Assembly (NCBI GenBank): GCA_019057865.1
Contig: JAHLWP010000010.1
Coordinates: 54,086-118,085, forward strand
Length of the DNA stretch: 64,000 nucleotides
Direction of reading: 5' to 3'
Source of the DNA: Promethearchaeota archaeon
GTDB taxonomy: Archaea > Asgardarchaeota > Lokiarchaeia > Sigyniarchaeales > SOKP01
The notes below the pieces were generated by a model. The model ran no database searches, was not told the origin of the DNA, and saw nothing but the letters and a program-made list of their open reading frames with translations. The position numbers and the translations under genes were made by a program. The stretch's first letter is position 1. Every line of letters begins with the position of its first letter. Positions 9,030 through 63,809 of this stretch are shown piece after piece.

Positions 9030-10375
9030 GGTTTTTTCAACCCCTCCTCATTTGTCATTACTATAACCGCAGCATATGCCGCTCCAGGGCCTCCTATTGA
9101 GTGAGCAATAGCTCTGCCATTTTCAATTGTTTTTATTTGATGCTTTCCAGCATCCTCTCTAAGCTGAAGTGCTGCTTCACCTGTAGACATTATCCCGGTA
9201 GCACCAACAGCATGACCACATCCAATTAATCCACCGCAAGGGCAACATGGTAATTCACCATCTAACCATGGCCCCTCCCCTGGTTTTTCAAAGGATTTTT
9301 CAATCCATGGACCACCTTCCCCAAAAGGAACAAACCCAAGCTCCTCATAAGAGATGACTTCTTATCCAGAGAATATCGAACTGATATTCATTGTCCTGAG
9401 AAGGCATCATGGAGCTCTGCTAAATCAATTTGTTCCTTTATTTTATTATAGTCTAAGCCTGCCATCTTATACGCGGCTTTTGCAGCAAAAATATTTGAAT
9501 ATAACCTTCCCATATCTTCTCTATTTCCTATAAAACAATCGGTATTTGCTGCTGCGACACCAGTAATCCAAATCGGCTTTTCAATTTTTAATTCTCTTAC
9601 TTTTTCTTCACTTGCGAGAATTAATGCTGCTGATGCTTCTGAATATAAACAACAATCAAGCATCTTGAAGGGATGACAAATTATCCTTGAGTATAGGACA
9701 TCATCTAAGGAAATTTTCATAGGGGATTGTGCTTTTGGATTGAGCATAGCATTCCCATGGTTTTTTACGCTAACTTTAGCCAATTTTAACTAATTGTTAA
9801 GATTTAAAGCCATTTGTTCTTCGGTAGGATTACCGAATTCTTCATAATGGGCGTTTACCATAGAAACGTACGAGGTTGCTGCCATCATTCCCATAGGATA
9901 TTTACGAAATATGTAGAACTTACACCATTTTTTCGTAAGTCATATCAGTAGAATAGGCGATGGCATTCAAAACTTCAGGTGTCGTAGTTCCTGTTTGTTC
10001 GTCATAGCAATCATTGCATTTTTCGACTCCTATACATAAACATAAGTCAGATAAGCCAGAAGCTACTTCTGCAAAAGCCATTCGGACAGTATATCCTCCT
10101 GTTGCTCCTCCTGTTGCTATACGAGTACCAGGTTTATTATTCATCCCTATATAGGAATTACAAAAAATATCTGGCATAAATTGTCTTTCAAATAGCTCAT
10201 TATAGATTCCATATACCGTAGATTGTAAATCCTTATGAGTTATTTCAGCACCGTTATTATTTGCGTCCTCAAGTGCTAATTTTGTTGCATCATATGCTAA
10301 TTCAAAATATGTCTTATCTAAATACTGGGCTTTAAAAGGAGTAATTCCTATACCTATAATCGCAACTTTCTTCAC
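9026..10375 (-). CDS. Thiolase-superfamily (SCP-x/Ltp-like) protein, 4 exons (10375-9932, 9900-9806, 9775-9393, 9363-9026), 419 aa after removing three predicted BHB introns
   Basis: 1350 nt minus 31+30+29 nt = 1260 nt = 419 codons plus stop. Spliced junctions read DMTYE/YPMG, EEQMAL/VSVKNH and ELHDAFSGQ/EVISYEELG. C-terminal GGLIGCGHAVGATG. The stop overlaps the DUF35 ATG (ATGA). Confidence 0.88.
9364..9392 (-). other. Predicted BHB mRNA intron 3 of thiolase 1 (29 nt)
   Basis: mRNA: GAUGCCUUCU-CAGG-AC^A-AUGAAUAUC(AGUUC)GAUAUUCU-CUGG-AU^A-AGAAGUCAUC. Exon stem 9/10 bp; central helix has one A.G mismatch. Removal restores the frame. Confidence 0.75.
9776..9805 (-). other. Predicted BHB mRNA intron 2 of thiolase 1 (30 nt)
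   Basis: mRNA: AAU-GGCU-UU^A-AAUCUUAAC(AAUUA)GUUAAAAUU-GGCU-AA^A-GUU. Contains an in-frame UAG. Spliced product is MALVSVKNH. Confidence 0.85.
9901..9931 (-). other. Predicted BHB mRNA intron 1 of thiolase 1 (31 nt)
   Basis: mRNA: U-UACG-AA^A-AAAUGGUGUA(AGUUC)UACAUAUUU-CGUA-AA^U-A. Perfect 4-bp central helix. Spliced product is TYEYPMG. Confidence 0.85.
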
Positions 10376-10542
10376 ATTTTTTCACATTTTATATTATTTT
10401 ATGTTTTTTGATATTAGATATATTTATTATATATTCTTTTCCAATTTTTTTTAGAGAGTAAATCGTTAAAAGTTTAAATCTTACATTATTTAATTCTATA
10501 ATTGTATTATAATTAACAGTTTGTTAACAAAAGTGAAAAAAA

Positions 10543-11577
10543 TTGGTTTTAGAGACAAATATAACTGAAATGTTAGGAATTAAGCATCCAATTGTTGGAG
10601 CACCTATGGGACCTTTTTATACAACTGAATTAACGGTAGCAGTATCTGAAGCGGGAGGATTAGGAGTTTTAAGTCATACTAATTTATTCGGTAAAAGCAG
10701 TACTGAAGAAATGAAGAAAAATATGGAATATGTTATTGAACATACAGATAAACCTTTTGGTTTTAATATTAGAACAGCAAGGATGCAAATGGATGCTATA
10801 AAACTTTGTAGAGAAATACCCAAGTTCATTATGAGCAAACCAAAATTAAGGGAACAGGTAAGATATGCAATAACTTCTGCTGGTTCCGCTCGTATGTTGC
10901 TAAGAAGTAAAAATTACCAGAAATTAAAAGAAGTGTCTGATATCAGAAATTTCCATGTAGCTCCAGCATTTTGGTTAGCTAGAAAATGCGTAGAGGCAGG
11001 AGTTGATGGGCTTGTAGTAACTGGATTTGAAGGGGGTGGTCATCAATCATATGAGAAAACATCTACCTTAGTTTTGATTCAACAGGTAAAACAAGCATTT
11101 CCTGATATTCCCATAATTGCATGTGGAGGATTTGCAACGGGTGTAGGGCTTGCTGGAGCATTAGCAATGGGAGCAGGAGCGATAGCTATGGGAACTAGAT
11201 TCATTGCATCAAAAGATAGTGAATTTCATGAAAATTATAAACAAATTGTAGCTCCTGCGAAAGCTCCTGATACAACAGTAGTCACAGGATTTATAGCTCC
11301 AATAAGATTATGGAAAAATACATACACATCCCATCATGATACTGTGAAAAATAAAAATGAGAAACTCGTAAAGGAGAGTGAAATGTTAATACAAGATTTG
11401 CTTATTGATCAAAAGAATTATGAAATGGTATATGAAGGGTATATAGAAAATAGTGCTGTTCCTTTAGGTCAAAGTTGTGGTATAATCAATAGTATCGATA
11501 ATGTAAAAGATATTATTGAAAATATAGTAAAAGATGCAGAAATTTACCTTAAAAATTCAAATAACTTTATAAAATAA
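10543..11577 (+). CDS. Nitronate monooxygenase / FabK-like flavoprotein
   Basis: PIVGAPM, AVSEAGGLG, GFEGGGH, IACGG, MGTRF. Confidence 0.9.
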   Translation: MVLETNITEMLGIKHPIVGAPMGPFYTTELTVAVSEAGGLGVLSHTNLFGKSSTEEMKKNMEYVIEHTDKPFGFNIRTARMQMDAIKLCREIPKFIMSKPKLREQVRYAITSAGSARMLLRSKNYQKLKEVSDIRNFHVAPAFWLARKCVEAGVDGLVVTGFEGGGHQSYEKTSTLVLIQQVKQAFPDIPIIACGGFATGVGLAGALAMGAGAIAMGTRFIASKDSEFHENYKQIVAPAKAPDTTVVTGFIAPIRLWKNTYTSHHDTVKNKNEKLVKESEMLIQDLLIDQKNYEMVYEGYIENSAVPLGQSCGIINSIDNVKDIIENIVKDAEIYLKNSNNFIK

Positions 11578-11606
11578 ATTGATATTATAAAAAAAAATAA
11601 TTTTGA

Positions 11607-13385
11607 TTATTCTTTAGTTCTTAATTCACGCCGTAATATTTTACCTACTACAGACTTGGGCAATTCTGGGATAATTTCTATTATCCTTGGATATTTAAAT
11701 GCTGAAATATTAGTTTTACACCATTCCATTAGGTCTTCTTTTGAAACTTTATCTTGATATTCAGGTTTAAGCGAGACATAAGCTTTTATATTCTCTTCCA
11801 CTTCTGGATCTGGAACTCCAACAACGCCAACTTCATTAATAGCTTCATGAAGATACATTAGATCTTCAACTTCTCTTGGAAATACAGAGTGTCCCTTATA
11901 TTTAATCATATCTCTTTTACGGTCCTTGATATGTAGGTATCCATCGTGGTCTATACAACCAATATCCGTCGTATAATACCAAGTTCTTCCTTTTGAATCT
12001 TTTCTCAATGCATATTCAGTAGCTTCTGGTCTATTTAAATAACCTAGAAATACTTGGGGTCCACAACCACAAATTTCTCCAATATATTTTGCCTCATCTG
12101 GTCCGCAGTCATCACAATTATCATTAGGGCATTGAGGCAAAATTTTTGTGCCATCTTCAGGATCAACAATTTTTATCAATGTATCTGAAACGGGGAAGCC
12201 TACTGTATTTTCCTTATATTTATGGAATGGTGTGACCGTTAATATTGGACTTGTCTCGCTCATTCCAAAACCTTCTACGATTAACGCACCAGTGATATCT
12301 TCAAATTCCTGTTTCACCTCTAAAGGGAGAGCAGAAGCCCCACTTAAGCATGCAATAAGAGAATCAAGTTTTCCTTTATACTTGATGGAACCTGGGTCTT
12401 GACTAATCTTATTCCATAAAGTTGGCACACCAGGACCAAAAGCTATGCTTTCTTGTTTAATCATTTTTAATATCTTTGAAAGCTTAGCAGGTGGTTTTAT
12501 AAATAAAACTAGTTTATATCCATGATACACTCCAATATTCATTGCTATTGATAATGCAAATTCATGTGCTAAAGGTAATACAACAAACATTCCCCCTTTA
12601 CCTAAAGTTTCTTCTACTTTTGGTAGTTGAGTTCGCACAAAAGTGCTACCCTGTTGCGCGTTTACCACAAAATTAAAATGTGACATCATACACCCTTTTG
12701 GAAGCCCTGTAGTACCTCCAGTATATATCAAAGTAGAAACGTCTTCTATAGGATTTATATTCACGGCTGGTAACTCTATCGGAAGTCCTCTTGTTAAAAA
12801 GTCTTGAAATTTATGGAAATTCACATCTCCAACTTTTGTTGGCCATTTTTTCATTCTTGGAACCTTTCCTAAAGCGGTCCCTAATTTAGCCTTCATTGGG
12901 GGCAGATATTCAGCAATTCCAGTCAATATAATATCCTTTAATGTAGGCATTTTACTCAATTCATTGCCATGTAAATATTCTTCATAGAGTATATCTAAAA
13001 TAATCAAAACTTTTCCTTTAGAATCATTTGTTTGATGAACAATTTCTGTAAATCTATTTAATGGAATGATGGGATTAGCAATAGCACCAATTCGAACTAT
13101 ACCAAAATATGTAATTACAAATTGAGGGACATTAGGTAAATCTATAAGTATAACATCCCCCTTTTTAATTCCCATTCTTGCGAGGGCTGTAGCAAATTGA
13201 TCTGCTGCTTCATCTAATTCTTTATATGTCATCTGAAATCCTTCAAAATAAATAGCTTGACTTTCTGGGTACGTCTCAGCTGTATTTCTTAACATCTGTC
13301 CTAAGGATATTTCATCATAGTCAATATGGCGAGGTGTTTCTTTAGGCCATAACTTCATCCAATACTCAGTAATTTCATCACTCAT
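11607..13385 (-). CDS. Long-chain fatty acid-CoA ligase (AMP-binding)
   Basis: YTGGTTGLPKG, EGFGMSETSP, DRKRDMI, PKSVVGKILRR. Confidence 0.93.
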   Translation of the reverse strand: MSDEITEYWMKLWPKETPRHIDYDEISLGQMLRNTAETYPESQAIYFEGFQMTYKELDEAADQFATALARMGIKKGDVILIDLPNVPQFVITYFGIVRIGAIANPIIPLNRFTEIVHQTNDSKGKVLIILDILYEEYLHGNELSKMPTLKDIILTGIAEYLPPMKAKLGTALGKVPRMKKWPTKVGDVNFHKFQDFLTRGLPIELPAVNINPIEDVSTLIYTGGTTGLPKGCMMSHFNFVVNAQQGSTFVRTQLPKVEETLGKGGMFVVLPLAHEFALSIAMNIGVYHGYKLVLFIKPPAKLSKILKMIKQESIAFGPGVPTLWNKISQDPGSIKYKGKLDSLIACLSGASALPLEVKQEFEDITGALIVEGFGMSETSPILTVTPFHKYKENTVGFPVSDTLIKIVDPEDGTKILPQCPNDNCDDCGPDEAKYIGEICGCGPQVFLGYLNRPEATEYALRKDSKGRTWYYTTDIGCIDHDGYLHIKDRKRDMIKYKGHSVFPREVEDLMYLHEAINEVGVVGVPDPEVEENIKAYVSLKPEYQDKVSKEDLMEWCKTNISAFKYPRIIEIIPELPKSVVGKILRRELRTKE

Positions 13386-13504
13386 ATTAAATCAATTTTG
13401 AATTTTCTGTAAATATGAATAATATTAATTCAATGAATATTTAAAATTTTAATAAAAATCAGAGTCAATTTCAGAATAAATATTAATATAGAACAATACC
13501 TAAG

Positions 13505-13942
13505 TTATATTCTCATCTTATATAAATTTTTATCAGGGACATAACTCATCATAATCAAATCATCTCTTATATCCCAGCCCAAATTAAAATAAAAATCTAC
13601 AACCTGCTTATTATATTTTTCAATGAATAAATGAACTTTATGTACTCTCATTTTATGAAACCTTGCAATTAATTCATCTATCAACATTTTACCATATCTT
13701 CTTTTTTGGTAATCAGGTTCTACAGCTAGATGATGGATATATCCTCTTCTTCCATCGAATCCTCCCATTACAACACCAATGATTTTCTCATTTACCCTAC
13801 CTATTAGGAAAAGATTTGGATTTCTTTTAAGCATTCTTTGGATTTCCTCTCTCGTATCAGTGGAACCTGCACTAATTCCTGCCTTTCTCCAAAGATTAAT
13901 TACATCTTCATATAATTCCATAGAAAATTTTTCGATTTTCAT
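13505..13942 (-). CDS. GNAT acetyltransferase (YpeA-like)
   Basis: GGFDGRRGYIHHLAVEPDYQKRRYGK. Confidence 0.9.
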   Translation of the reverse strand: MKIEKFSMELYEDVINLWRKAGISAGSTDTREEIQRMLKRNPNLFLIGRVNEKIIGVVMGGFDGRRGYIHHLAVEPDYQKRRYGKMLIDELIARFHKMRVHKVHLFIEKYNKQVVDFYFNLGWDIRDDLIMMSYVPDKNLYKMRI

Positions 13943-13990
13943 CTTATTGAGATATTTAACAAACTTTTTAAGTTTTTTATTAGGAATATT

Positions 13991-16075
13991 TTAGTTATTA
14001 AAAGATTCTAGAGATAATCTGGATATATTTTTCCTTACTTCTGTTTTATCATCAACAATCTTTTTTACATATTCTGAGATTTCTTTTCTTTTATTAATGT
14101 CCGAGGAGATTGGTAAGATTACGTCCATAATTCTGTTTCCAATCGTTGCAATTGTTCCTTGAACAAAAGTAATTGCTTGAATTTGTTTTTGCACAATATC
14201 TAAATTCAATAAATATAAAAGGAGATAAGAATCAATAAATTCATTATTTTCTAATACTTTTATCTGGAATATATGACTTTGAATTATTATTTTAGTATCT
14301 AAGCTAGTTATATAAGCAGTTTTTCCAATCAAATTAGGCCCACCATCCTTAACTAATAGGATGTCTCCTTCTTCTATATTCTGTTTTAGTTTATAATGCT
14401 TATAAACTTCTTCACTTGTCTTTTTATATGAATCTAAATTTATTTCCCAATTATTTATTTCACTGGTCCGAATAAATGGAATATCACCTAAACCATAAAC
14501 ATGAGATCCTATTTCATCTCCTCGAGGGAGATAACCACCCTTATTAGTATAAATTATTTTTTGGTTTGTTAAATTTTTAATACTTAAAAGTGTGAAATTT
14601 TTATCATCTGCCAGTCTCTTTAAAGTTTTTTCTACACCGATATAATAAATCGGGATGAAAATTTTATCTTTAATCTGGCTAAATTTAATCTTAAAGATTT
14701 TTTGTTCCTTTAAATAGTCAAATTCTTCAGCCTTTCTTATTTTTAAGTGTAAACCTATGAGGTCATCGTTTACTATTGGATAGCCTGCAGAATCTAATTT
14801 TTTACTTCCATCTTTATTCAATTTATATGAAACCTTACCATCTTTATCATGTCCCACATTTTCCACAATTGCAAAATCAATTGTATAATCTGCCGGAATA
14901 TTATTTAATTTTTGAAAGAATAAAATACTTGTTTTATTACATGTATAAGGTTGAAAGGTATTCTGATCTAATGAGATAATAGCTAAGATTTTACCATTAG
15001 AAGTTAAATATTCCCAGATATAGCGATCTGTAGGATTTCCGAATATCCCTTCTGGTAAGACAATACCTAGCTTTCCTCCATCTTTAAGGAACTGAATGCA
15101 CCTTTCAATAAATAAAACTTGGGGTGGTTGTTGTTTTACTAACTTTTCTTGCATTTTCCACTCATCACCAATATTTTTCCAAATATGACCAAGCTTGTAA
15201 TCTTTTAAAATTTCTTTATCGTTTATAGGAATTTTAACACCAAACGGAGGATTAGTAAAAATATAATCAAAGAAATTGTCTTTTATTACTTCTTTTGCTT
15301 GAGTTCCATAACTTTTGGGATCCAAAGAATCCTCACAAAAAATATTAGATTTTCCATTACTCAATATTTCTAAGTATAATTTACTAATTTTTGCTAAGAA
15401 GAGGTCTTTATCAATACCAAATAAATTTGAAATAGAATTAATTCTTTTTTCTTCAGAGCTGATTTTTGACCATAACAATTCCTTTACTTCAAGAAGGAAC
15501 CCGCCATGACCACACCCGGGATCTAGTAGTTTTGCATCAACAGTAGGATCTAAATAATGTACCATGAATTCAATGATATTTGGAGGGGTAAAAAATTGCC
15601 CTCCTTCATCTTTTAAAATCTTACTTACAAAAATCTCAAAAGCATCACTTAATATGTCTTTAGAGGATTTTAATAATGAAATCTGCTGTAATTCTTTCAC
15701 AATTAGGTATAAAAGTTCTTTATTTAGGCTAATTTGCTCGTTTTCACTAATTATATCCTTATATTTTTCTTTAACATTTTTTTCGAATAGTTTTTGTATT
15801 CTTTCAAATAAATCTTCTATTGATTCACCTTTTTTAATACAAAAATCCACAATTTCATTATCATCCTTGCTAATTTCATCAGTTAATTTACAAAGTAAGA
15901 GATTTATTATTTCTTTAGATCTTGTCCTTGTATCTGTATCAGTTTGTTTTAATTTAGCATATAAATGTTGATTAATTGAGATAAAGGTCTTCTTTAAATT
16001 TGGAGACTTTATTAGATCTTCTTTTTTAATTCCATTGGACCCTATTTCTAAGAAATCGGTAATGTGAACAGGCAT
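13991..16075 (-). CDS. N6-adenine DNA methyltransferase (HsdM-like) fused to a specificity (TRD) domain
   Basis: GQFFTP, LDPGCGHGGFL (motif I), NPPF (motif IV), VLPEG; C-terminal IPFIRTSEI..GDILL..IGKTA HsdS-like region. Confidence 0.88.
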   Translation of the reverse strand: MPVHITDFLEIGSNGIKKEDLIKSPNLKKTFISINQHLYAKLKQTDTDTRTRSKEIINLLLCKLTDEISKDDNEIVDFCIKKGESIEDLFERIQKLFEKNVKEKYKDIISENEQISLNKELLYLIVKELQQISLLKSSKDILSDAFEIFVSKILKDEGGQFFTPPNIIEFMVHYLDPTVDAKLLDPGCGHGGFLLEVKELLWSKISSEEKRINSISNLFGIDKDLFLAKISKLYLEILSNGKSNIFCEDSLDPKSYGTQAKEVIKDNFFDYIFTNPPFGVKIPINDKEILKDYKLGHIWKNIGDEWKMQEKLVKQQPPQVLFIERCIQFLKDGGKLGIVLPEGIFGNPTDRYIWEYLTSNGKILAIISLDQNTFQPYTCNKTSILFFQKLNNIPADYTIDFAIVENVGHDKDGKVSYKLNKDGSKKLDSAGYPIVNDDLIGLHLKIRKAEEFDYLKEQKIFKIKFSQIKDKIFIPIYYIGVEKTLKRLADDKNFTLLSIKNLTNQKIIYTNKGGYLPRGDEIGSHVYGLGDIPFIRTSEINNWEINLDSYKKTSEEVYKHYKLKQNIEEGDILLVKDGGPNLIGKTAYITSLDTKIIIQSHIFQIKVLENNEFIDSYLLLYLLNLDIVQKQIQAITFVQGTIATIGNRIMDVILPISSDINKRKEISEYVKKIVDDKTEVRKNISRLSLESFNN

Positions 16076-16162
16076 ATTTTTTATATATTAAAAATTACCT
16101 ATTACTCACTATATTCAATAAGACTATTATTATTTTTTATTAAATGAAAATTAATTTTATAT

Positions 16163-16945
16163 ATGTCTCTAAAAGATCTCGATATCGGAGAATACATTGA
16201 ATTTAATGTAAAGAAGAGATTTGCAATAATAACACTTAATAGGGTTCATAGATCAAATGCATTTACAATTGAGCAATTAAGATTCTTAAAAAAAGCAATA
16301 GAATATTGTCAAAATTCAGAAAAAATTCGAGGTTTAATCCTAACTGCAAATGGAACAACTTTTAGTACAGGTATGGACTTGGATTTTATTGATGGTAGTG
16401 ATCATAATGCTGTAAAAGACCTTGAGAGAACTGCTGCTGAGATTTGTATGTTATTATTTAATGGAAAGCCTGCGATTGCGGCTATAAATGGCCGTTGTTT
16501 AGGTGAGGGTGTTGTATTTCTTTTATGTTGTGATTATAGGATAAATGTTAAAGACACTTATTTCCAATATCCTGAAATCTTTTCTGGTATTTTTCCGGGT
16601 ACAGGTTGTATAGTATTAATGACTAGAATTATCGGGATTCCTTGGACAAAAAGGATGTTAATGCTAGCTGAAAAGATTAGCTCTGAAAAGGCGTTAGAAA
16701 TTGGGTTAATTGATCAAATAGTTGATTCCAAAGAAGAATTGATGCAAGCTGCTATTGATAAGGCAAAATTTCTCTTTCCTAAAAATCAAACTGTTCTTAA
16801 TGCTATTAAATTGTGTTCAAATCATTTACTTGATAAAATTTATCATAAAGCTTACGAATTAGAAAAAGAGGCTTCAGGGTGGTTTGAATATGATAATAAA
16901 AATAAATTCATAAGTGATTTTAGAGAAAAGTTATCATCATTATAA
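16163..16945 (+). CDS. Enoyl-CoA hydratase/isomerase family protein
   Basis: ITLNR..NA, FSTGMDL, KPAIAAING, PE..GIFPG. Confidence 0.9.
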   Translation: MSLKDLDIGEYIEFNVKKRFAIITLNRVHRSNAFTIEQLRFLKKAIEYCQNSEKIRGLILTANGTTFSTGMDLDFIDGSDHNAVKDLERTAAEICMLLFNGKPAIAAINGRCLGEGVVFLLCCDYRINVKDTYFQYPEIFSGIFPGTGCIVLMTRIIGIPWTKRMLMLAEKISSEKALEIGLIDQIVDSKEELMQAAIDKAKFLFPKNQTVLNAIKLCSNHLLDKIYHKAYELEKEASGWFEYDNKNKFISDFREKLSSL

Positions 16946-16988
16946 TTTTAATGATATTGAAAAGAAAAAAAAGTGAAAAAGAATAAAA

Positions 16989-17765
16989 ATGTCATTTGAA
17001 GGTTTAGAATTTGGAGAATTTATAGAATTTTCTATAAAAAAAAGATTTGGAATAATTACCCTAAATAGAGCAGAACGAGCAAATGCTTTAACTACTGAAA
17101 TGTTAAAAGATTTGAAAAGAGCAATTGAGTATTGTATGGATAATGTAAAAATAAGAGGAATTATATTGACTGGAAATGGTTCAAGTTTTACAACGGGAAT
17201 GGATATTGATTCTATAGATGGAAGTAATCATGCTGCTGTTAAAGAATATGAACAAACCGCTGCCTTTATCGCGAAATCAATATATTATGGAAAACCAACC
17301 ATTTGTGCTATTAATGGTAAGGCAATGGGTGATGGTGTTGCCTATTCTCTATGCTCTGATTATCGAATAGCTGTTAAAGAAAGTTTTTTTATGATGCCTG
17401 AAATAAATTTAGGTATTTTTCCTGGAACTGGAACAATTGTGTTAATGACAAGAGTTATTGGGATACCTTGGACAAAAAAAATACTTATGTTTGCTGAAAA
17501 ATTAAGCTCTGAAAAAGCGTTAGAAATTGGATTAATTGATCAAATAGTTGATTCCCAAGAAGAATTGATGCAAGCTGCTATTGATAAAGCAAAATTTCTC
17601 TTTCCTAAAAATCAAACTGTTCTTAATGCTATTAAATTATGTAGTAACCATTTACTTGATAAATCATATAAAGAAGCATATGAATTAGAAAAATATGGGT
17701 CTGCTTGGTATGAGTATGAAGATAGAGATCAATATATTAAGGATTTTAGAAAGAGACTCTATTAA
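16989..17765 (+). CDS. Enoyl-CoA hydratase/isomerase family protein (tandem paralog)
   Basis: ITLNRAERANAL, FTTGMDI, KPTICAING, MPEINLGIFPG. Confidence 0.9.
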   Translation: MSFEGLEFGEFIEFSIKKRFGIITLNRAERANALTTEMLKDLKRAIEYCMDNVKIRGIILTGNGSSFTTGMDIDSIDGSNHAAVKEYEQTAAFIAKSIYYGKPTICAINGKAMGDGVAYSLCSDYRIAVKESFFMMPEINLGIFPGTGTIVLMTRVIGIPWTKKILMFAEKLSSEKALEIGLIDQIVDSQEELMQAAIDKAKFLFPKNQTVLNAIKLCSNHLLDKSYKEAYELEKYGSAWYEYEDRDQYIKDFRKRLY

Positions 17766-54501: not shown

Positions 54502-57474
54502 TTAGAAAAGTTTTTTTTGACTTGTCTGCAATTCTTTTTTCTTTTGATAACCTCTTAAAATTATTTCTTCATAATCGATACCTAAAGCATCTAATAGCTG
54601 TTCTAATGCTGATCTCAATAATTCTCTATATTTTTTAACATCTAAATCTCTAAAGATGGCCAATTCAAAAGCTTTAGCTCCAATTTTATCATTACTTTTA
54701 ATAAACTTAATATTTTCTCCTTTTTGTAATTCTTTTCCTGTTGCATCTCTTAATGCTAGAGCAGCCCTAACATGCTGAGGAATTGTTTTGTCATATGAAT
54801 CAAGTGATTTTTGCATACTTATATTAATTGAATAATCTTCTAAGGTGAACTCTCCCTCTTTACCAATTTTTTTTCTGTTTTTTTTTATAACCTCAATAAT
54901 GGATTTTCTTGCTTTTAAAAAATCTTCATTATCATTAATGTCCTTTAAAATTTCAATCAGGTCGTTAAACACTGTTTTAATAAATTCTGGTGTGTTTTTT
55001 TTTTTCGCAACTAAACCTTTCTTATCAACAAACTTAGTATCTTTATAAATACCTAAATAGTTCTTTTTTCTATCTGAAAGAGCTAAAAATTGATATGTTT
55101 TTTCTTCTTCTAAATCAAGATCAAGTTCTTCTTTACTCCATTTACTTATTTCATTCATTTGTGCTTGTGAAGGATTTTTAAGAAAAATGGAATCTGTATC
55201 TCCATAAAGAACTTCTATCCCAATTTGCTCTGCTTTTTTAATAGTTTGCTTTATGGAATATTGTCCTATTCCCGTAATACTTTCTGCTACAGGTAAGCAA
55301 TATAAAGGGAAATTTTGCGAACCAAAAACTCCGTATGAGGCATTAATGAATACTTTAAGTGCTTGTTGAATTGTTTGATAATAATTTCGTTGTTTTTCAG
55401 ATAGAGTTTTATCACTTGATTTTGGTTTGAAGTACTTTACTCTAATATCTCGGAAGAAACCAACTACATAAGCAAAGATTCCCATTTTATGAGTACATGC
55501 ATGATAAGGACTGGCTTTTAATAGATTATCTTTACAATCGTTGTGAGGACATAGTACAGTCTCATATGAAAGGTTATATTCTTTTATTATCGAAGGATAA
55601 AGTGATGCGTAATCCATAACTACAACATCAAAATGAATCCCCGGTACAGGTGGAAAAACGTAAGCACCTGCGAATGCTTTTCCTTCTATAACTGCTTTTG
55701 AATAGCCCCCTGTTTTTAATTCAGCTATTTCAGATCGCCGAGGTATTAGATAATTTTTTCGACGATGTTCAAAATAAAAAATACTTTGTATCCAAGTGGA
55801 TATCTGGCGTCTTACAGTTTCATGGATTGGCATTTTAGTAATCCGACATAATAAGATAATTAAGTTCCATACAAGGGAGTTGTTAAATTTGGTCAATTCT
55901 AAAGTTAATATGGAATCTTTTAGATTATACCAGGTAAGAATATCATATTCCATTTCATGTATCTCTTCTTCGTGCTCATACTTTTTTTCACCCAATAATG
56001 CTCCACTAATAGCGTTTAAAGAACTGCTTTCATAAACACCACCAAATGCATATCCAGAAATACTTCTATTAAAGAATAGATTAAATAAATCGATATGAAT
56101 TCCTTTTCTAAGATCACAATCTGACCTCGATAAAAAACCAAAACCCCTCTTAATATGAATAGGATTTAAATCTCTTTCAATTTTTAATTTATTTGCTCTA
56201 TGAAACATATAATTTAAATCAAAATTATCTCCGTTAAATGTAATAATTACAGGGTACTCCCATAAAAGACGAAAGGTTTCAGTTAATAAGTTCTTCTCAC
56301 TTTTAAAAAAAATTAATTTTGCTTCAGAAGGAAATTTTTGATGAAGCCCTCGATAAGAGAATCCTTCTCTTTCTAATGCATATACTAATTTTAAACCATC
56401 TGTAGATACAAAGGATATACTTATTATTTCTTGATTCGCTTGACGGGGATCTGGGATACCAAGATCTTCTGGACCTAAATTCACTTCAATGTCCATAGCC
56501 AATCTTTTAAAATCTGGAATTGGAGTTAAAAATATATCTAAAAACTTTTCTGAAAATTCTTGAATTTCTGAAGCTTCATCTTTAAATAGATTCCGTAATT
56601 CAATGGCCATTTTTTTGGATTCTTCTGAATCCTCTTCAAAACTTAATTTTTGAATTTGCCCATTCTTAATACTATAAATTAATCCAGGAATTAATTGTGT
56701 ATCATAGATATAATTTAAATGATATCTAATATCTGCCTCCCAAGCTTTTATGTCATGTTCCCCTAAAATATTCCGAATATTTTTTCCAGATCCTCCAATA
56801 TCGGATGGTGTTTTACCATAAATTTTTGTTATTGTAAGTTCTTTATCTTCTAATAGGTCTACTTTCTTTATTTCTTCAAATCTTGTGAATCCATCATAAC
56901 TTGTTAAATCTCTATTATTTTCCAAATCTGATTTTGATTCTTTACTTAAACAATAAGGTTCGTGGTTTGTTGTATCAATCCATAACTTAATTTCATCTTT
57001 GTCCAAATCATAGAATTTACAGAATGCTTTATTTTGTCCACCATCATAATCAACGTCAAGTAATAACCCTCTTTTCAGATTTTCTACAATCTCCCCTTTT
57101 TTGATTAAATATCGAATATATTTTGAAGTAACTGTTTCTCGTGTCACTTTATCTAATTCAATGATTCCTTCCTTTAATCCAAAAGGTACATCATTCCCTT
57201 TAAAAAATAAATCTTGAGGGATTTCTTTTGTCTCAACTTTTTGTTTTATTTTTTCCTCTTCTATTTTCTCTGTTTTTTTGGTAGTAATTTCCTTTTTTGG
57301 TTCTTCTTCAACTAATTCTTTAATTTCCTCTTTTTTGGGTTTTTTTTCTCCTATCTTCTTTTTTGGAGTTTCTTCTTTCACAAAACTAAAAAGTGAGGTC
57401 TGTGCTTTCTCCTCATCTGATTTCTTTTTAGATTTTTTTGGAGCTGGCAATTTTATAACCAATAGAAATTTCAA
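54502..57474 (-). CDS. polB: Family B DNA polymerase (PolB1-like); true start possibly TTG 57450
   Basis: MDIEV (ExoI), FNGDNFD (ExoII), DYASLYPSII, KVFINASYG, YGDTDS, KKNY. Confidence 0.95.
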   Translation of the reverse strand: MKFLLVIKLPAPKKSKKKSDEEKAQTSLFSFVKEETPKKKIGEKKPKKEEIKELVEEEPKKEITTKKTEKIEEEKIKQKVETKEIPQDLFFKGNDVPFGLKEGIIELDKVTRETVTSKYIRYLIKKGEIVENLKRGLLLDVDYDGGQNKAFCKFYDLDKDEIKLWIDTTNHEPYCLSKESKSDLENNRDLTSYDGFTRFEEIKKVDLLEDKELTITKIYGKTPSDIGGSGKNIRNILGEHDIKAWEADIRYHLNYIYDTQLIPGLIYSIKNGQIQKLSFEEDSEESKKMAIELRNLFKDEASEIQEFSEKFLDIFLTPIPDFKRLAMDIEVNLGPEDLGIPDPRQANQEIISISFVSTDGLKLVYALEREGFSYRGLHQKFPSEAKLIFFKSEKNLLTETFRLLWEYPVIITFNGDNFDLNYMFHRANKLKIERDLNPIHIKRGFGFLSRSDCDLRKGIHIDLFNLFFNRSISGYAFGGVYESSSLNAISGALLGEKKYEHEEEIHEMEYDILTWYNLKDSILTLELTKFNNSLVWNLIILLCRITKMPIHETVRRQISTWIQSIFYFEHRRKNYLIPRRSEIAELKTGGYSKAVIEGKAFAGAYVFPPVPGIHFDVVVMDYASLYPSIIKEYNLSYETVLCPHNDCKDNLLKASPYHACTHKMGIFAYVVGFFRDIRVKYFKPKSSDKTLSEKQRNYYQTIQQALKVFINASYGVFGSQNFPLYCLPVAESITGIGQYSIKQTIKKAEQIGIEVLYGDTDSIFLKNPSQAQMNEISKWSKEELDLDLEEEKTYQFLALSDRKKNYLGIYKDTKFVDKKGLVAKKKNTPEFIKTVFNDLIEILKDINDNEDFLKARKSIIEVIKKNRKKIGKEGEFTLEDYSINISMQKSLDSYDKTIPQHVRAALALRDATGKELQKGENIKFIKSNDKIGAKAFELAIFRDLDVKKYRELLRSALEQLLDALGIDYEEIILRGYQKKKELQTSQKKLF

Positions 57475-57591
57475 ATTTGTTTGAGCTATTAATTAATATG
57501 ATAATATTTATTTTAATCTCAACTATTTTGAGTTTAATATTTATTTTATTAAATAAAAAATAGAATTGATAAAACTACCTTTTTTCCTAAT

Positions 57592-57735
57592 TTATTTAGT
57601 GCCTGTTGTCATTTTAATATCTTCAATAAGCATAAAAGGAGCAAAAACAACGTTATTAGCAGGACTCAACCATGTAGATACTTGTTTTAAAGTTTTTCCT
57701 AAAGCTATTGTATGTTCAAGTATATGAAGATGATT
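57592..57735 (-). pseudogene. Short C-terminal remnant, TldD/PmbA-like
   Basis: Hand translation ...ILEHTIALGKTLKQVSTW...VFAPFMLIEDIKMTTGTK*; no start codon. Confidence 0.4.
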
Positions 57736-57774
57736 TGAATAATATTAGAAGTTGTTTATTAAGGAAAAGATTTT

Positions 57775-58119
57775 TTATTTCTTATTTTGGGAAATTGTAT
57801 TCTTAATCTCATCTAATAAAAGCTTTTTTTCTGCTATGTACCAATCAAGCTGGCTTTTTGAAGGATTCTCATGATAAATAATTTCTGCAACGTCCCGAAT
57901 TTCATCCTCAGAGGCTTTAATTAAAGCACCATCAACATCCTCTCGGATTAGTAAAACTAAATTATCAGTCTCTAATGGTTTAATATCATATCCGTTTTTT
58001 ACATTTTTATTAATTATAACACAAAGTTGAGCAAGACGCCAAATAGACTTATCTAAGCTCTTGTTCTCCTTGTAGATTTTAAAAGCCAATCTAGTTACAT
58101 CCTCTTTTGAGAAAGGCAT
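57775..58119 (-). CDS. Hypothetical protein with two DUF2934-like helical repeats
   Basis: SKEDVTRLAFKIY..W.LA.. and SEDEIRDVAEIIY..WYIAE. Confidence 0.65.
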   Translation of the reverse strand: MPFSKEDVTRLAFKIYKENKSLDKSIWRLAQLCVIINKNVKNGYDIKPLETDNLVLLIREDVDGALIKASEDEIRDVAEIIYHENPSKSQLDWYIAEKKLLLDEIKNTISQNKK

Positions 58120-58300
58120 AATAATTCAAAATATTCTATTATAATTCTTTATATAATGACAGTTATACTGATGGGTATCAAAAAGATAATTAAACTTTTA
58201 ATTATTTGTGTTTACTTTTATAGCTAATTAAAAACACAAAATTAATAATTTATTCATTTTTACTATCTTTAAATAAATGCCTCCGTAGCTTAGCGGTATA

Positions 58301-58330
58301 ACTACTATTATTTTATAATCGCAGGACTAT
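58301..58330 (+). other. tRNA intron at position 23/24 (D-arm), 30 nt, relaxed BHB
   Basis: GGUA-UA^A-CUACUAUUA(UUUUA)UAAUCGCAG-GACU-AU^G. Removal restores the D stem. Confidence 0.75.
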
Positions 58331-58366
58331 GCATCCGACTTGTAATCGGAAGGTCGGGGGTTCAAA

Positions 58367-58395
58367 ATGACAATGCATTCGCATTGTAATGAAAA
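58367..58395 (+). other. tRNA intron at position 59/60 (T-loop), 29 nt, canonical BHB
   Basis: GGGGG-UUCA-AA^A-UGACAAUGC(AUUC)GCAUUGUAA-UGAA-AA^U-CCCCC. Confidence 0.92.
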
Positions 58396-58601
58396 TCCCC
58401 CCGGGGGCTTCTATATTTTATGATGAATACTATTTAACATTTTTCTGGATTATGTTGATTATGGCTGGAATTCAATTTCTAAGTTTTCTAATATTTAAAA
58501 CGATCAACAGAAAAGAATATGAACATAAACATATTTTAAAGAAATACAATATAATACAATAAAATCTCAATTATTTCCATAGCTCCCATTTTTAATTTAT
58601 T

Positions 58602-60176
58602 ATGAATAAAATAAATCGTATAATTCTTTGTATAATTGATGATGTTAGATCCAAGCATTTTTTTAATTTTATTGATAAAGGATTACTCCCCAATTTTAAA
58701 AAATTAATGGAAAATGGACTATATTCTAAGAATTGCATAACAGATTTCCCTTCCATTACTTATCCTACCCAAATATCTATTAATACTGGTACATACACAG
58801 GAGATTATCGTAAAGAATTATGTCATGGGATACCTTTAGCAAAATGGATGGGGCGAGATACTAAACCTCCTTTTTTGAGAGATTATGCCTCTAAAGATAT
58901 GCAAATATATAAGTTGAACGAAGATGTTGGCAATAATTGTCAAACTATCCTTGAAATGGTTGGTGATGAGAATAATGCTAGTATAAGCCAATTTTTAATT
59001 AAAGGTGCAAAGTACTTCTTCCCTGAGAGAAAGACAAAACTCGCAATGCTTTATCTCCTTCTAATGCTTCTACGAAATAGAAAAAGAATAATGATTAGAG
59101 CAAATTCGGTGATTGTTCAGAAGTTATTAGAGACTTTTAAAAGTCCAAAAAAGTTTTTTGACGTCAATGAACCTCCTATAGCCTCTTTACTTTGCTTTAT
59201 ATCTTCTGATTTATTAATGCATGTGTATGGATTCGATTCAAAAATATATAAATTAAATTTATTACATATCGATAAAGTTATAGGCTATTTAATTGAGAAG
59301 TTAGATGAGATGGGCTATTTAAATGATACTGCTATTGCTATTACCTCAGATCATGGGAATTATAAAGCGAAGAAAGTGGGAGACCTAACAGATTTTTTTA
59401 TAGCAAATAAATTAACTCACTATCATCCTCATAAGAATAGAAAAGGAAATATGGACCTCGCTGAATATGGTGGTGTTGGTTTTTTTAATTTTAAAGGAAA
59501 GGTTAAATCGGATAGCTATAAATTTTGGCTACAACCAACTATAAAAGAGCTTGAAAATTATGGGAAAAAACGAGTAAATTTACTAAAGGAATTATTCAAC
59601 ATTAAGGGAACCCAATTAATGTACTATAGAGATGATGAAAATACAAATAAAAATGGAAAAATCTATTTAAAGAGGAAATATATAGATACAAATAAAATTA
59701 TAACAGGAATAATTGAATATAGAGGAACTGGACATAATTTTAAGACAAAATATATTATAGAAAATGATGAAAATGATGTTTTCAATTATTTAACTGATCC
59801 TAAAGCTAGTAAATTGATAGATGGCAAATTTCATTCAATAAATGAATGGTTAATTGCAACATCTCATCTTGATTTTCCATTATATCCAGATTTAATTCCT
59901 CGCCATTTTAAAAATCCAAGAAGTTGTGATATTATTCTTAGTAATGAGGGGACTATTATTTATAATATTGAACATGGAAAGAAAAAAAGGAGGACCAGAT
60001 ATTTTCACGATATCGGGTTAAGAAAGAGTTCAGTTGTTCCCTTGATTATAGGAGGATCATTAGAAATACCTCATAAAGAGGTACAATTTTGCAAAATTGT
60101 TGATATTGTTCCAACTCTATTAAAATTTTTAGGTAAAACACCTCATAAAAGTGTGATTGGGGAAAGTCTGGTTTAG
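58602..60176 (+). CDS. Alkaline phosphatase superfamily (nucleotide pyrophosphatase/phosphodiesterase)
   Basis: CIIDDVR, FPSITYP, DLLMH, ITSDHG, IVDIVPT. Confidence 0.85.
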   Translation: MNKINRIILCIIDDVRSKHFFNFIDKGLLPNFKKLMENGLYSKNCITDFPSITYPTQISINTGTYTGDYRKELCHGIPLAKWMGRDTKPPFLRDYASKDMQIYKLNEDVGNNCQTILEMVGDENNASISQFLIKGAKYFFPERKTKLAMLYLLLMLLRNRKRIMIRANSVIVQKLLETFKSPKKFFDVNEPPIASLLCFISSDLLMHVYGFDSKIYKLNLLHIDKVIGYLIEKLDEMGYLNDTAIAITSDHGNYKAKKVGDLTDFFIANKLTHYHPHKNRKGNMDLAEYGGVGFFNFKGKVKSDSYKFWLQPTIKELENYGKKRVNLLKELFNIKGTQLMYYRDDENTNKNGKIYLKRKYIDTNKIITGIIEYRGTGHNFKTKYIIENDENDVFNYLTDPKASKLIDGKFHSINEWLIATSHLDFPLYPDLIPRHFKNPRSCDIILSNEGTIIYNIEHGKKKRRTRYFHDIGLRKSSVVPLIIGGSLEIPHKEVQFCKIVDIVPTLLKFLGKTPHKSVIGESLV

Positions 60177-60204
60177 AATAACTAAAACAAATTTGGTCAA
60201 TAAA

Positions 60205-61611
60205 TTGGAATTAAAAATATTATATATAAATGACCTACATAGTAGATATGAAGAACTTGCTAAAATTGCAACCATTATTAAAAAACTCAAAGATGATAAT
60301 ACACTTATCTTTGATGCAGGTGATACTACAGATCCATGGCGCATAGAAGTTATAGGAACTAAAGGGAATATTATTTCGGATATTCTTAATTACATTGGTT
60401 TCAACACAAGAATCATTGGAAATACTGAAGGTTTTTCAGATAAAGATATATTTGAAGAAATTATAGAGAGTTCAAATTTTCCAGTAATCACATGCAATAT
60501 TTACAATATAAAAGGTAAAAAGATTAAAAATGTAAAGGATTATGTTATTTTTGATATTAATGGTTTAAAAGTTTTGGTGACTGGCGTAACACCTGCTTAT
60601 AATGAGTTTTACCACCTTTTTAATATTCATATAGAGGATCCAACTAAAGATTTAAAGCGAGTTCTTTCCAAAATTGACAAAAATCAATTAGATCTTGTAA
60701 TTGTTATATCTCACTTGGGCTTAGACGGTGATAAAGAATTAGCAAAAAAATTATCTAATATTGACATTATCATTGGAGGACATTCTCATACAGTTCTTAA
60801 TGAATGTCTTGTTAAAAACAATGCAATTATATGCCAAGCTGGAAATTTCGGTGAATATGTAGGAGAACTTATTATAGACTATGATTTTAAAGAGGGATTA
60901 ATAAAGAGTTTTAAAAATAGATTAATTTCAACTAAAGATTATCCTGAGGATCCTAAAGTTATTGAGCTTATAAAACAAAACTCAAAAATAGCTATAGCCA
61001 ACATGTCTCGCCCTTTATATAAAATTGATCTTAATTTGAAACACTCTTTTACTGAAGAAAGTCAAATAGGCAATCTTTTGGCTGACGGTTTAAGGGATTT
61101 CTTTAAATATGATATTGGTATAATAAATAGTGGGGTTTTGAATCATGGAATCGAAAAAGGTTATGTTACAAGATTAATTCTACATAAAATTTGTCCTTCA
61201 CCATTAAATCCAACTTTAGTTGAAATTAAAGGAAGTGACTTGTTACTAACCTTAGAAAAATCTTTACTTCAAGAGTTTCAATTAAGTGATGGTGCAGGAG
61301 CAGGATTTAGAGGAAGCTTCCTAGGAAATATTCAAGTATCTGATAATGTTCAAATATATTATAATCCAGCAGACAAGCCACTAAACAAAATACAAGCTGT
61401 AAAGATCAATAATGAATTATTAGATCCCCTAAAATGGTATATCGCAGGAACATCCGATTATCTACAACGTGGAACTGGCTATGAGGAATTTGGTAATTGT
61501 AAAAATGAAATTTATAGACGGGAGTGGTTAAGGGACATCCTTGAGAATTATTTAAAAAAAAGAAAATATGTCAAAAAAGCTTTAATTAAACGGTTTATCC
61601 AAACTGTATAA
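60205..61611 (+). CDS. Bifunctional metallophosphatase / 5'-nucleotidase
   Basis: INDLHS, FDAGD, ISHLG, IIGGHSH, QAG, INSG; likely start TTG 60205. Confidence 0.9.
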   Translation: MELKILYINDLHSRYEELAKIATIIKKLKDDNTLIFDAGDTTDPWRIEVIGTKGNIISDILNYIGFNTRIIGNTEGFSDKDIFEEIIESSNFPVITCNIYNIKGKKIKNVKDYVIFDINGLKVLVTGVTPAYNEFYHLFNIHIEDPTKDLKRVLSKIDKNQLDLVIVISHLGLDGDKELAKKLSNIDIIIGGHSHTVLNECLVKNNAIICQAGNFGEYVGELIIDYDFKEGLIKSFKNRLISTKDYPEDPKVIELIKQNSKIAIANMSRPLYKIDLNLKHSFTEESQIGNLLADGLRDFFKYDIGIINSGVLNHGIEKGYVTRLILHKICPSPLNPTLVEIKGSDLLLTLEKSLLQEFQLSDGAGAGFRGSFLGNIQVSDNVQIYYNPADKPLNKIQAVKINNELLDPLKWYIAGTSDYLQRGTGYEEFGNCKNEIYRREWLRDILENYLKKRKYVKKALIKRFIQTV

Positions 61612-61648
61612 TATTCCTTTAAATTCGGAAAAAAAGGTTAAAAAAAAA

Positions 61649-62101
61649 TTATATTGGGCGAAAATATTCAATATCTAATATTCGCTTTCTTGGTTTTTCT
61701 TTAAAAACAGCTTTTACTTGCATACCCACTTTTAATTGTTTAGGATCTCCGATATTTATAATATGTACAATATCAGTGTCCGCACCATCTAATCTAATTA
61801 TTGCATAGGAGTAAGGTGGTTCAAGAGGCATTACTGGTGTTGAATGCGCAATTGTAGTAAAGCCTACAACTGTACCTTGATTTCCAACCTCTATCCATTC
61901 TTCCATTTTTTCAAAACATTCTACACAAATCATTCTGGGAGGAACAAATACTTTACTACACTTAGGACATTTTACACCCATAATTCTTTTATTTTTTCCA
62001 ATTTCGGTTATAAACCGTTCAACATATGCTCCTGCTGTGTGTTTGTAGGGTACTTTTATTTTTCCTCTAAATATTTTCTTTTCATCAATCAGGTTATCCA
62101 C
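61649..62101 (-). CDS. DUF35 Zn-ribbon/OB-fold protein
   Basis: GVKCPKCSKVFVPPRMICVEC, IRLDGAD. Confidence 0.92.
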   Translation of the reverse strand: MDNLIDEKKIFRGKIKVPYKHTAGAYVERFITEIGKNKRIMGVKCPKCSKVFVPPRMICVECFEKMEEWIEVGNQGTVVGFTTIAHSTPVMPLEPPYSYAIIRLDGADTDIVHIINIGDPKQLKVGMQVKAVFKEKPRKRILDIEYFRPI

Positions 62102-62114
62102 TTTTTCTCACCCT

Positions 62115-62603
62115 TTATGGTTTTTGTACCTCTCTAATAACTTTAAAGTATATTATATCCCCTATATTTCCTTTCCTTTCATCTTTAAATACAGCCTCAA
62201 CACGCATCCCTACTTTTAATTTAGTATAGTCCGTTTCATCTATAAAATGCATTGTAAAAGTATCAGCGCCATCTAATTTGAATAATGCATAGCCATAAGG
62301 AAAAGGACGTAGACCTCCTGTCTGAGGATCTACAAAAGGATAATTAACTACCGTGAAGCCATGCAAAGTTCCTTTTTTATCCAATTCAACTAGATCCTTT
62401 AACTCCATTTTAATAAAACATTCTGCACATACAGTTCTGGGTGGAAAATGCACTTTACCGCATTTTGGACACTTGCTTCCTAATAATTTTTTGTTTTCCT
62501 TTAGCTCTTCAAAAAATTTAACCGATAACTTACCTATGGAATACCTATAAGGTAGATCGGTTTTCCATTTAATCTCAAAAGGCTTTTCTTTCTGTTTGCT
62601 CAT
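62115..62603 (-). CDS. DUF35 Zn-ribbon/OB-fold protein
   Basis: GSKCPKCGKVHFPPRTVCAEC, KLDGAD. Confidence 0.92.
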   Translation of the reverse strand: MSKQKEKPFEIKWKTDLPYRYSIGKLSVKFFEELKENKKLLGSKCPKCGKVHFPPRTVCAECFIKMELKDLVELDKKGTLHGFTVVNYPFVDPQTGGLRPFPYGYALFKLDGADTFTMHFIDETDYTKLKVGMRVEAVFKDERKGNIGDIIYFKVIREVQKP

Positions 62604-62612
62604 ATTTTTTAT

Positions 62613-63809
62613 TCACCTCATAGGTTCTTTTCCTAATATTAGTATTTCTGTCCAAAGTGAACCGCCAAATCCCATTGCTAAAGCATTTTCTGCATCAGGT
62701 ACTTGACGTTTTTCACCTCTGCCCATTACTTGAGTTGCTGCCTCAGCTACTCGAATTAATGCTGTAGCACCTATAGGATTAGTACTCAATACACCTCCCG
62801 ATGGATTAACTGGTAATTCTCCACTCATTTCAGTAATTCCCTCATCTAACAACTTCCCTCCTTCACCAAATTTAGCAAATCCTAGGGCTTCTGTCCATGC
62901 TAATTCGCTCCAACTTGTGGGTTCATATATTTCAGCGACATCTAAATCTTTTATTGGATTAGTGATTCCTGCTTTTTTATAAGCTTTCTTTGAAGCAATC
63001 GTAGCTGTAGGGAGATTATACATTGCATCATCAGTCCCAAAGGTATAATAATGAGCAGTTTCTAAGGCTTTAAACCATGCCGGATTATCTGTTATCTTCT
63101 TAGCTTCTTCTTTATTTGCATAAATTAGAGCACATGCTCCTTCACTCTGTGGACAGCAATCATGTAATCTTAATGGATATGATATCATCTGTGAACTCAT
63201 AACATAATCTACAGTAATATCAGGCATTTGTAGATGTGCAAATGGATTATTAGCGGCATTACGACGATTTTTTACAGTAACTTTTGCTGCTTGTTCTGGT
63301 GTTGCGCCATATTTATCTTGATACATAGATGCCATAAGGGCTAGTGGACCGAGAGCACCAGCTAAAGATGGTCTTTCCCATACCGGATCAAATGCTGTTA
63401 TTATACCGGTAGTAGCTCCACCTTCTTTTAATTTTTCCCAACCAACAACTAAAACCTTGTTATAAATTCCTGAGGCAACATTGTGATAACCACATATAGC
63501 TAAGGAACTACCCGTTGTGCCACCTGTTGCAACCTTAACTACAGGTTTTAAATATCCAGGAGCTCCTTCAATTCCACAGAATAATTCAGAGAAATTAATT
63601 CCTTCAAAATGGTCCATTTAGTATTTAATCTCGAGATGAAATTAAATATTACCAATGACGATCGCATCAATCTCTTTAGGTTCAAGTTGAGCATCATCAA
63701 GAGCCATCTTTACGGCTTCGTATACCATCTCAGGGATATTAACATCTCTTCTCTTACTCCTAAATTTAGTCTGACCTATGCCGACTACGGCTACATCATG
63801 TCTCGGCGT
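62613..63809 (-). CDS. Thiolase-superfamily (SCP-x/Ltp-like) protein, 2 exons (63809-63648, 63617-62613), 388 aa after removing one predicted BHB intron
   Basis: Exon 1 reads (ACG)PRHDVAVVGIGQTKF...DAQLEPKEIDAIVIGN and joins MDHFEGIN... of ORF 62613..63617. VKNRRNA, AEIYEP, PVNPSGG, NPIGATA. Confidence 0.88.
63618..63647 (-). other. Predicted BHB mRNA intron of thiolase 2 (30 nt)
   Basis: mRNA: GGUA-AU^A-UUUAAUUUC(AUCUC)GAGAUUAAA-UACU-AA^A-UGGAC. 9-bp intron stem; in-frame UAA. Spliced product is IGNMDHF. Confidence 0.87.

Follow-up and report, generated by a model that had tools for sequence, protein, structure and literature searches.

Thirty-nucleotide micro-introns of one plan in tRNA and protein genes of Lokiarchaeia and their probable spread as DNA at fixed sites

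The window, a 64,000-nucleotide (nt) stretch of a Promethearchaeia (Lokiarchaeia) metagenome-assembled genome (MAG), holds six insertions of about 30 nt. It spans positions 54086-118085 of contig C7 of genome G000 (JAHLWP010000010.1 in assembly GCA_019057865.1). Four of the insertions interrupt two thiolase-family genes and two interrupt a transfer RNA (tRNA) gene. How do such similar elements come to reside in tRNAs and messenger RNAs (mRNAs), and how do they spread? The original prediction saw in them one mobile micro-intron family across tRNA and mRNA that travels by reverse splicing or a templated route. The answer that we consider probable agrees only in part: They are EndA/RtcB-type micro-introns built on one plan, which spread as DNA at fixed sites. 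The features concerned are the following (all coordinates are those of the window).

9026..10375, minus strand: thiolase-family gene 1, 419 amino acids (aa) with its three introns taken out; upstream of a ChsH2-like Zn-ribbon/OB-fold gene
9901..9931, minus strand: intron A, 31 nt; helix UACG/CGUA, 4 of 4 pairs; loop AGUUC; frame-breaking
9776..9805, minus strand: intron B, 30 nt; helix GGCU/GGCU, 4 of 4 pairs including two G-U; loop AAUUA; in frame, with a stop
9364..9392, minus strand: intron C, 29 nt; helix CAGG/CUGG, 3 of 4 pairs, 5 base pairs in a shifted register; loop AGUUC; frame-breaking
62613..63809, minus strand: thiolase-family gene 2; its 5' part an imported tract from another genus
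63618..63647, minus strand: intron D, 30 nt; helix GGUA/UACU, 4 of 4 pairs; loop AUCUC; in frame, with stops
58279..58409, plus strand: tRNA-Thr(UGU) gene with two non-canonical introns
58301..58330, plus strand: tRNA D-arm intron at about position 23/24, 30 nt; helix 3 of 4 pairs; weak hairpin
58367..58395, plus strand: tRNA T-loop intron at 59/60, 29 nt; helix UUCA/UGAA, 4 of 4 pairs; loop AUUC, ending 15 nt before the 3' cut

All six insertions have the lengths ascribed to them and lie where they had been placed, three in one thiolase gene, one in the second and two in tRNA-Thr(UGU). Each begins with A, ends in AA or AU and has an inner segment of 22-24 nt, and the five loops named before are all present. 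The tRNA gene is missed by ARAGORN and Rfam, whose scans of the window returned no tRNA or RNA match. When A, B and C are removed in silico, a single 419-aa thiolase results that is collinear with 28 of 29 homologues, all insert-free; the remaining one has two inserts, at other sites. Removal of D yields the junction found in about 47 intron-less homologues. The nearest homologues of the window's thiolase genes belong to Promethearchaeota (Lokiarchaeia) MAGs. Two structural claims had to be narrowed. The 4-nt helix that each intron should form with its own exon is complete in four of six, but C and the D-arm intron pair at only 3 of 4 positions in the canonical register. A hairpin was expected in every intron, but the D-arm intron folds poorly (inner minimum free energy 0.0; z -0.05 in context). 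The stability of A and B does not exceed that of shuffles (z -1.0 and -0.5).

These introns recur in other genomes. A homologous intron occupies the site of A in L309, L320, G114 and G134, same-site copies of B are 27-28/30 identical in hosts that are 79% identical, and the site of C is also occupied in 8 metagenome homologues. The T-loop intron of tRNA-Thr(UGU) has orthologues in G030 and G091. The D-arm intron is absent from the orthologue in the same-genus genome G006, which holds a different intron.

Does the plan extend beyond the window? In a motif-free census, the proteins of G006 (2.8 of 3.34 Mb) were aligned to G000 and vice versa. Frame-breaking insertions pile up at 28-34 nt in these alignments, in which stop-free in-frame indels span 12-231 nt. 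After curation, G000 has 27 or more mRNA introns (a lower bound), spread over about 18 genes with up to five in one gene, and G006 has 6; the curated tRNA set of both genomes comprises 28 non-canonical and 12 canonical introns. A search across the family found about 395 T-loop tRNA intron matches. Since stems share no sequence, explicit structural tests were used in place of a covariance model. The length mode is 30 nt in mRNA introns as well as in non-canonical tRNA introns, whereas canonical introns range from 17 to 46 nt. The shared architecture consists of a stem of about 9 base pairs and a 5-nt loop that tends to R-N-N-U-C and often ends in UC. This loop ends 14-16 nt before the 3' cut, a spacing that is kept in introns of 34 and 40 nt. 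UC is found 14-16 nt from the 3' end in 26 of 33 mRNA introns (on average 5.6 and at most 15 in 5000 shuffles), and it closes the loop in 10/10 D orthologues, although their stems and other loop bases vary. Family-wide, 195 of the 395 T-loop matches have the UC loop, compared with none of the 12 canonical anticodon-loop introns of G000 and G006. An earlier reading that tRNA introns lack the UC loop (first count 4/28) was dropped after the family-wide T-loop search.

Thus, length peak and loop bias hold in a larger set, and the notion of one blueprint for mRNA and non-canonical tRNA introns stands. The UC loop is a strong tendency, no rule. Some details of the blueprint were softened: Not all introns start with A (A in 19 and U in 12 of 33 mRNA introns), and an A as the first loop base, seen in 19/32, is likewise a tendency. 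The penultimate base is A in 29/33. Such a first and penultimate base are consistent with the known bulge preferences of EndA. The intron pairs with its own exon at 4/4 positions at 27 of 38 mRNA sites, compared with 3.5% when exons are swapped; a perfect Watson-Crick helix is present at 7/38 only. Length peak and own-exon pairing exceed chance. Since the canonical introns of the same cell have 17-46 nt and lack the motif, the splicing enzymes need neither 30 nt nor a UC loop, and both properties go beyond what the canonical introns require.

The mRNA introns are located in conserved motifs (88% local versus 76% whole-protein identity, with some detection bias) and occupy all three codon phases. 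Their host genes include essential ones, e.g. those for EF-2, rpoA1, S12, leuS and an initiation-factor GTPase. An acetyl-CoA synthetase gene (G000 C82:97-579) has five introns, three of them in frame without a stop, and a leucyl-tRNA synthetase gene (C49:5260-6156) has four. A 65-nt insertion with two hairpins in the gene of the largest RNA polymerase subunit (C27:30414-30478) possibly represents two nested or tandem micro-introns. In tRNA-Arg(UCU) near C80:4395-4500, a 30-nt D-loop intron seems to be built of repeats of the adjacent exon hexamer GCCUAG; it is the single case that appears templated from its own exon. De novo prediction contributed little. A strict bulge-helix-bulge (BHB) scan recovered 0/6 window introns because such introns often lack the outer exon helix, and a genome-wide scan gave 54,563 candidates, too many to be used alone. 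Filtered by the full plan, the 28-33-nt UC class contained 12, of which 7 had been found before; none of the others was supported by homologues, except for a shifted placement of a known intron.

By sequence tests (4-bp helix between two 3-nt bulges, restored product, host EndA and RtcB), the Loki introns classify as BHB type. G000 encodes two EndA-family proteins (PF01974; frames of 208 and 214 aa) and one RtcB. Exact frame restoration, compensatory stem changes, the presence of the EndA and RtcB genes and the essential nature of host genes support splicing, and the mRNA introns are probably removed by these host enzymes. LAGLIDADG domains occur elsewhere in G000. In addition, a 1033-aa open frame at C11:8998-12100 contains a reverse-transcriptase domain in its middle and, close to its start, a methyltransferase-like motif.

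The clearest evidence on spread comes from intron D. In 9 other genomes of 6 other genera, its site likewise has an intron; all of them are 30 nt long, and their stems differ by compensatory changes. The thiolase-2 tree (57 genes) requires 10 changes for the 10 D carriers from seven genera (mean with shuffled labels 9.5); the starred branches of the tree force 9. The intron of L056 (= G114, genus g28) is 30/30 identical to D of the window, although the two genes are only 86% identical overall, and it differs at several bases from that of L008, a closer relative of L056. The sister of L056, L009, is about 98% identical to it (1.3% differing overall) and intron-less. Just upstream of the intron, 6/31 bases differ between these sisters (P ~1e-5). 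At these 31 bases, L009 keeps the state of the relatives, i.e. the changed tract sits in the carrier L056. Similarly, gene 2 of the window matches genus g28 from about -105 to +255 around D and genus g1 in the remainder. The imported piece runs on into the partner gene and comprises about 0.85 kb in total. This partner thiolase gene (G000 C22:5637-6768) combines segments of three kinds, genus g1-like, L008-like and L009/L056-like, a sign of frequent recombination between genera. Among D carriers, the upstream exon haplotype is shared no more than in random sets, and carrier-carrier pairs display only a weak dip (0.90-0.94). Evidently, intron D has moved between genera within imported exon tracts.

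Gene 2 has two further peculiarities. ACG replaces the ATG of its relatives (window 63807-63809) and is preceded by a good ribosome-binding site, and the gene is split from its usual upstream partner, which sits at C22:5638-6768. The contig ends with a repeat of about 70 nt (window 63931-64000) that is common to the ends of C17, C18 and C25 and is probably an insertion-sequence end.

The thiolase-1 gene displays the same pattern on a broader basis. Among 109 homologues, 28-34-nt introns occupy eight sites including those of A, B and C, and about 88 of the 109 have no intron. The ratios of changes to carriers at the sites are 3/4, 3/4, 2/2, 3/3, 3/4, 5/6 and 7/9, and every site with multiple carriers is scattered over the tree. 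This means that the expected presence/absence differences between relatives exist, both for D and for the thiolase-1 sites. For 26 pooled pairs of a carrier and its nearest intron-less relative, divergence of the adjoining exon is 2.1 and 1.8 times the expectation (controls 1.2); it drops to 1.2-1.3 at 200 nt, and 0/5000 resamples match the peak. Taken together, each mRNA intron stays at its own site and is transferred laterally between species and genera. The introns also cluster: The thiolase-1 genes of L108, L273, L298, L309, L320 and L321 carry two to four each.

Between tRNA genes, introns have been copied. Two tRNAs of G147 whose acceptor arms differ have T-loop introns that are 27/30 identical, and the pair recurs in sister genomes; in G095, tandem Ser and Lys tRNAs have introns that are 25/30 identical (identities in both genomes counted by eye from printed matches). 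Within G000, no tRNA intron pair reaches 0.8 identity. All copies observed occupy the equivalent T-loop site with shared flanks. At unlike tRNA positions, no copies were found in G000 and G006; the family-wide survey covered T-loop introns only. Since T-arm flanks are nearly identical, ectopic gene conversion and RNA-level reinsertion could both explain the copies.

Do introns also jump from one mRNA site to another, or from tRNA to mRNA and back? Among the 39 introns within G000, pairwise identity peaks at 0.76, with no pair at 0.8 or above; the mean maximum under a null that preserves loops and pairing is 0.73. A larger pool of about 95 introns, two of which are misplaced entries (L280 and L281), has a median identity of 0.78 for the same site and 0.42 for different sites, and only 1 of about 4400 different-site pairs reaches 0.8 (0.83). 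The cores of A, B, C and D, searched class-wide in 161 genomes, were found in intron contexts at the same thiolase codons only. Similarly, the core of one T-loop family was found class-wide in T-loop contexts only and in no mRNA intron, and no match to the core of B or of D turned up in exact searches of viral contigs. Three ectopic matches were rejected: That in G029 is intergenic and AT-rich, that in G084 has one mismatch and no matching flanks, and the one in G030/G108, which resembles a T-arm with an intron, is in fact conserved coding sequence also present in G000 and G006. The target tetramers of the T-loop are almost absent from the 38 mRNA sites (GUUC 0, UUCR 1). Target-site duplication as a general mechanism was rejected, as bulge identity yields no signal (54 versus 56.7 in the null, P 0.79); self-complementary target tetramers number 12 versus 7.1 expected (P 0.04), and two thirds of the sites are not self-complementary. 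One intron-bearing gene occurs twice in G006 C1, near 337487 and 691070, with identical introns; this is a gene duplication and no intron jump. Hence, of the proposed mobile family over tRNA and mRNA, same-site transfer and T-loop copying persist, whereas sharing across mRNA sites or across the two RNA classes is unsupported. Near-identical introns at different loci were found among tRNA T-loops only. Spread by reverse splicing is unsupported, since no intron is common to different mRNA sites or to tRNA and mRNA.

In the mechanism that we propose, ORF-less BHB micro-introns (ORF, open reading frame) would be cut from tRNA and mRNA by EndA and joined by RtcB. Their plan reads: A or U, a stem of about 9 base pairs with a 5-nt R-N-N-U-C-like loop, a 9-nt arm, a 4-nt strand that pairs with the exon, and finally A-A/U. 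An existing intron would spread as DNA when homologous recombination brings it to the identical codon of that gene in another species or genus, and tens to hundreds of flanking exon bases would be carried along. In tRNA genes, the near-identical T-arm flanks would allow the same recombination to copy an intron into another tRNA gene. We infer homologous recombination as the vehicle. As the intron would arrive with its matching exon, no templating is needed for its spread; the puzzle of the matching helix persists for its birth. Spread driven by a trans-acting nuclease (homing) and passive spread are about equally probable. The fixed length and the UC loop suggest that one generator makes these introns or that one factor recognises them. 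It is possible, albeit doubtful, that Lokiarchaeia have a dedicated, active maker or recogniser of 30-nt introns (9-bp stem, NNNUC loop, fixed cut distance) that places them in tRNA and mRNA and mediates intergenus homing in trans. If so, this would be a minimal selfish intron system without ORF or ribozyme.

Several observations weigh against a spread as DNA on one plan. The pooled tract signal would be the same for gain or loss, and polarity is clear only for L056 and gene 2 of the window. The mosaic tracts of the partner gene on C22 hold no intron, and recombination is therefore common here anyway. The surroundings of D, up to 3 kb away in nine carriers, showed no free-standing nuclease gene. 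All genomes are MAGs, and relatives are non-independent. Removal by EndA and RtcB is deduced from geometry and gene content. The UC motif was spotted post hoc and is weaker in two held-out sets: It occurs in 6/18 thiolase-1 introns of other genomes and in 6/28 non-canonical tRNA introns of G000 and G006. The CT control yields 118 T-loop matches compared with 195 for TC, in part from the same loops.

The strongest competitor, still unlikely, is convergence without common origin: EndA cleavability would select unrelated hairpins, and passive recombination would shuffle the alleles. The bulge A's and the 4-bp helix are indeed known EndA requirements (PMC12397907, PMC4090602), stems are unrelated between sites, mosaic tracts occur without introns, and for other Asgard classes a preprint (10.64898/2026.10.13.758758) reports no copying route. 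However, the canonical anticodon-loop introns of the same genomes show neither the length nor the motif, the 40- and 34-nt introns hold the loop 15 nt from the 3' cut, and UC is invariant in the D orthologues. Somewhat less probable still is a single RNA-mobile family whose excised circles reverse-splice at matching tetramers, or whose pairing strand is templated on arrival, with fixation in DNA by reverse transcription. It would account for the length and UC loop common to mRNA and T-loop introns, for near-identical introns in different tRNAs and for eight occupied sites in thiolase-1, and G000 has one gene with a reverse-transcriptase domain. It would leave cross-site copies, yet these do not exceed the null in G000 or in G000 and G006 together, different-site pairs at 0.8 are all but lacking, and the class-wide core searches gave no ectopic intron. 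A large T-loop pool exists, yet its tetramers are all but missing from mRNA sites, and few helices are perfectly Watson-Crick. Old jumps could have decayed, so their absence is no proof.

The two other alternatives are very improbable. Ancestral introns, vertically inherited and lost many times independently, would explain why same-site introns are homologous across genera, and loss via an intron-less copy has been proposed for cbf5 (PMC2738675). However, carriers make up 2-18% of homologues and do not cluster, the intron of L056 equals D of the window and not that of its own closer relative L008, and the changed tract sits in the carrier and not in its intron-less sister; for D, vertical inheritance is largely refuted. 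Equally improbable is that the inserts are no introns at all, but assembly artefacts or gene-killing insertions. All genomes are MAGs, and gene 2 has ACG in place of ATG and is separated from its partner. However, independent assemblies have the inserts at exactly the same codons, with covarying stems, and the essential genes that they interrupt are 88% identical to the orthologues in the flanks. The preferred reading remains that of micro-introns which spread as DNA at fixed sites.

How does this compare with known systems? EndA/RtcB chemistry is unrelated to the lariat pathway of group II introns and the spliceosome. The suggested bearing on the origin of mRNA introns in the eukaryote-related lineage reduces to an analogy, as the splicing chemistry is unlike. 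The set shows an Asgard lineage that tolerates multi-intron mRNAs via a chemistry unrelated to that of spliceosomal introns. A practical consequence is that gene callers break or truncate essential Lokiarchaeia genes at the inserts. Length, UC loop and 15-nt spacing provide a sequence handle by which a factor that generates or recognises these introns could be sought.

In the literature searchable here, tRNA-type splicing within an archaeal coding sequence is documented for cbf5 only, whose pre-mRNA has a BHB intron in Crenarchaeota (Watanabe 2002; Yoshinari 2006; Yokobori 2009, PMC2738675). Many coding-gene introns in Microcaldus were not confirmed ('intron' occurs in PMC8784108 only within the reference list). 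Like the Loki introns, that of cbf5 is short and ORF-less, has strict or relaxed BHB ends, lies at a conserved motif and coincides with a hetero-oligomeric EndA. In contrast, it is confined to one gene and one site, has 16-44 nt and follows host phylogeny in A. pernix isolates (PMC2738675), whereas a single Loki genome has about 18 genes with 27 or more such introns, which are tightly grouped at 30 nt, have a loop motif and have been transferred between genera.

The plant cox1 group I intron is a homing intron with co-conversion tracts. Homing introns and inteins share with the Loki introns a fixed site in a conserved motif, a patchy distribution and flanking exon sequence of foreign origin. 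Homing is likewise known for BHB introns of archaeal rRNA that contain LAGLIDADG ORFs (PMC2738675). Unlike these, the Loki introns encode no endonuclease, for which 30 nt are too short, none was seen by D, and tracts also occur without an intron. For Thermoproteales, transposition of tRNA introns was proposed (Sugahara 2008; Fujishima 2010), as far as the summary in PMC4090602 goes. The comparison with it, drawn by the original prediction, holds among T-loops, where very similar introns lie in different tRNA genes of one genome (G147, G095), but does not extend to unlike positions or to mRNA, since Loki copies occupy the equivalent T-loop site only.

Published Asgard work found here covers tRNA introns only and offers no arrival route (PMC11291895; bioRxiv 10.64898/2026.10.13.758758). 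As in the Loki set, many D-arm and T-arm BHB introns are missed by standard tools, and recent gains are repeated. The 2026 preprint on Jordarchaeia and Atabeyarchaeia (10.64898/2026.10.13.758758), whose main text does not contain the word 'mRNA', reports a median of 22-23 nt with 1.5% shared across tRNA types and regards the arrival route of Asgard tRNA introns as the central open problem. The Loki set differs by a mode of 30 nt, the invasion of mRNAs and cross-tRNA copies. Same-site lateral transfer with exon tracts, together with T-arm copying, could be a partial and testable answer to the question of arrival.

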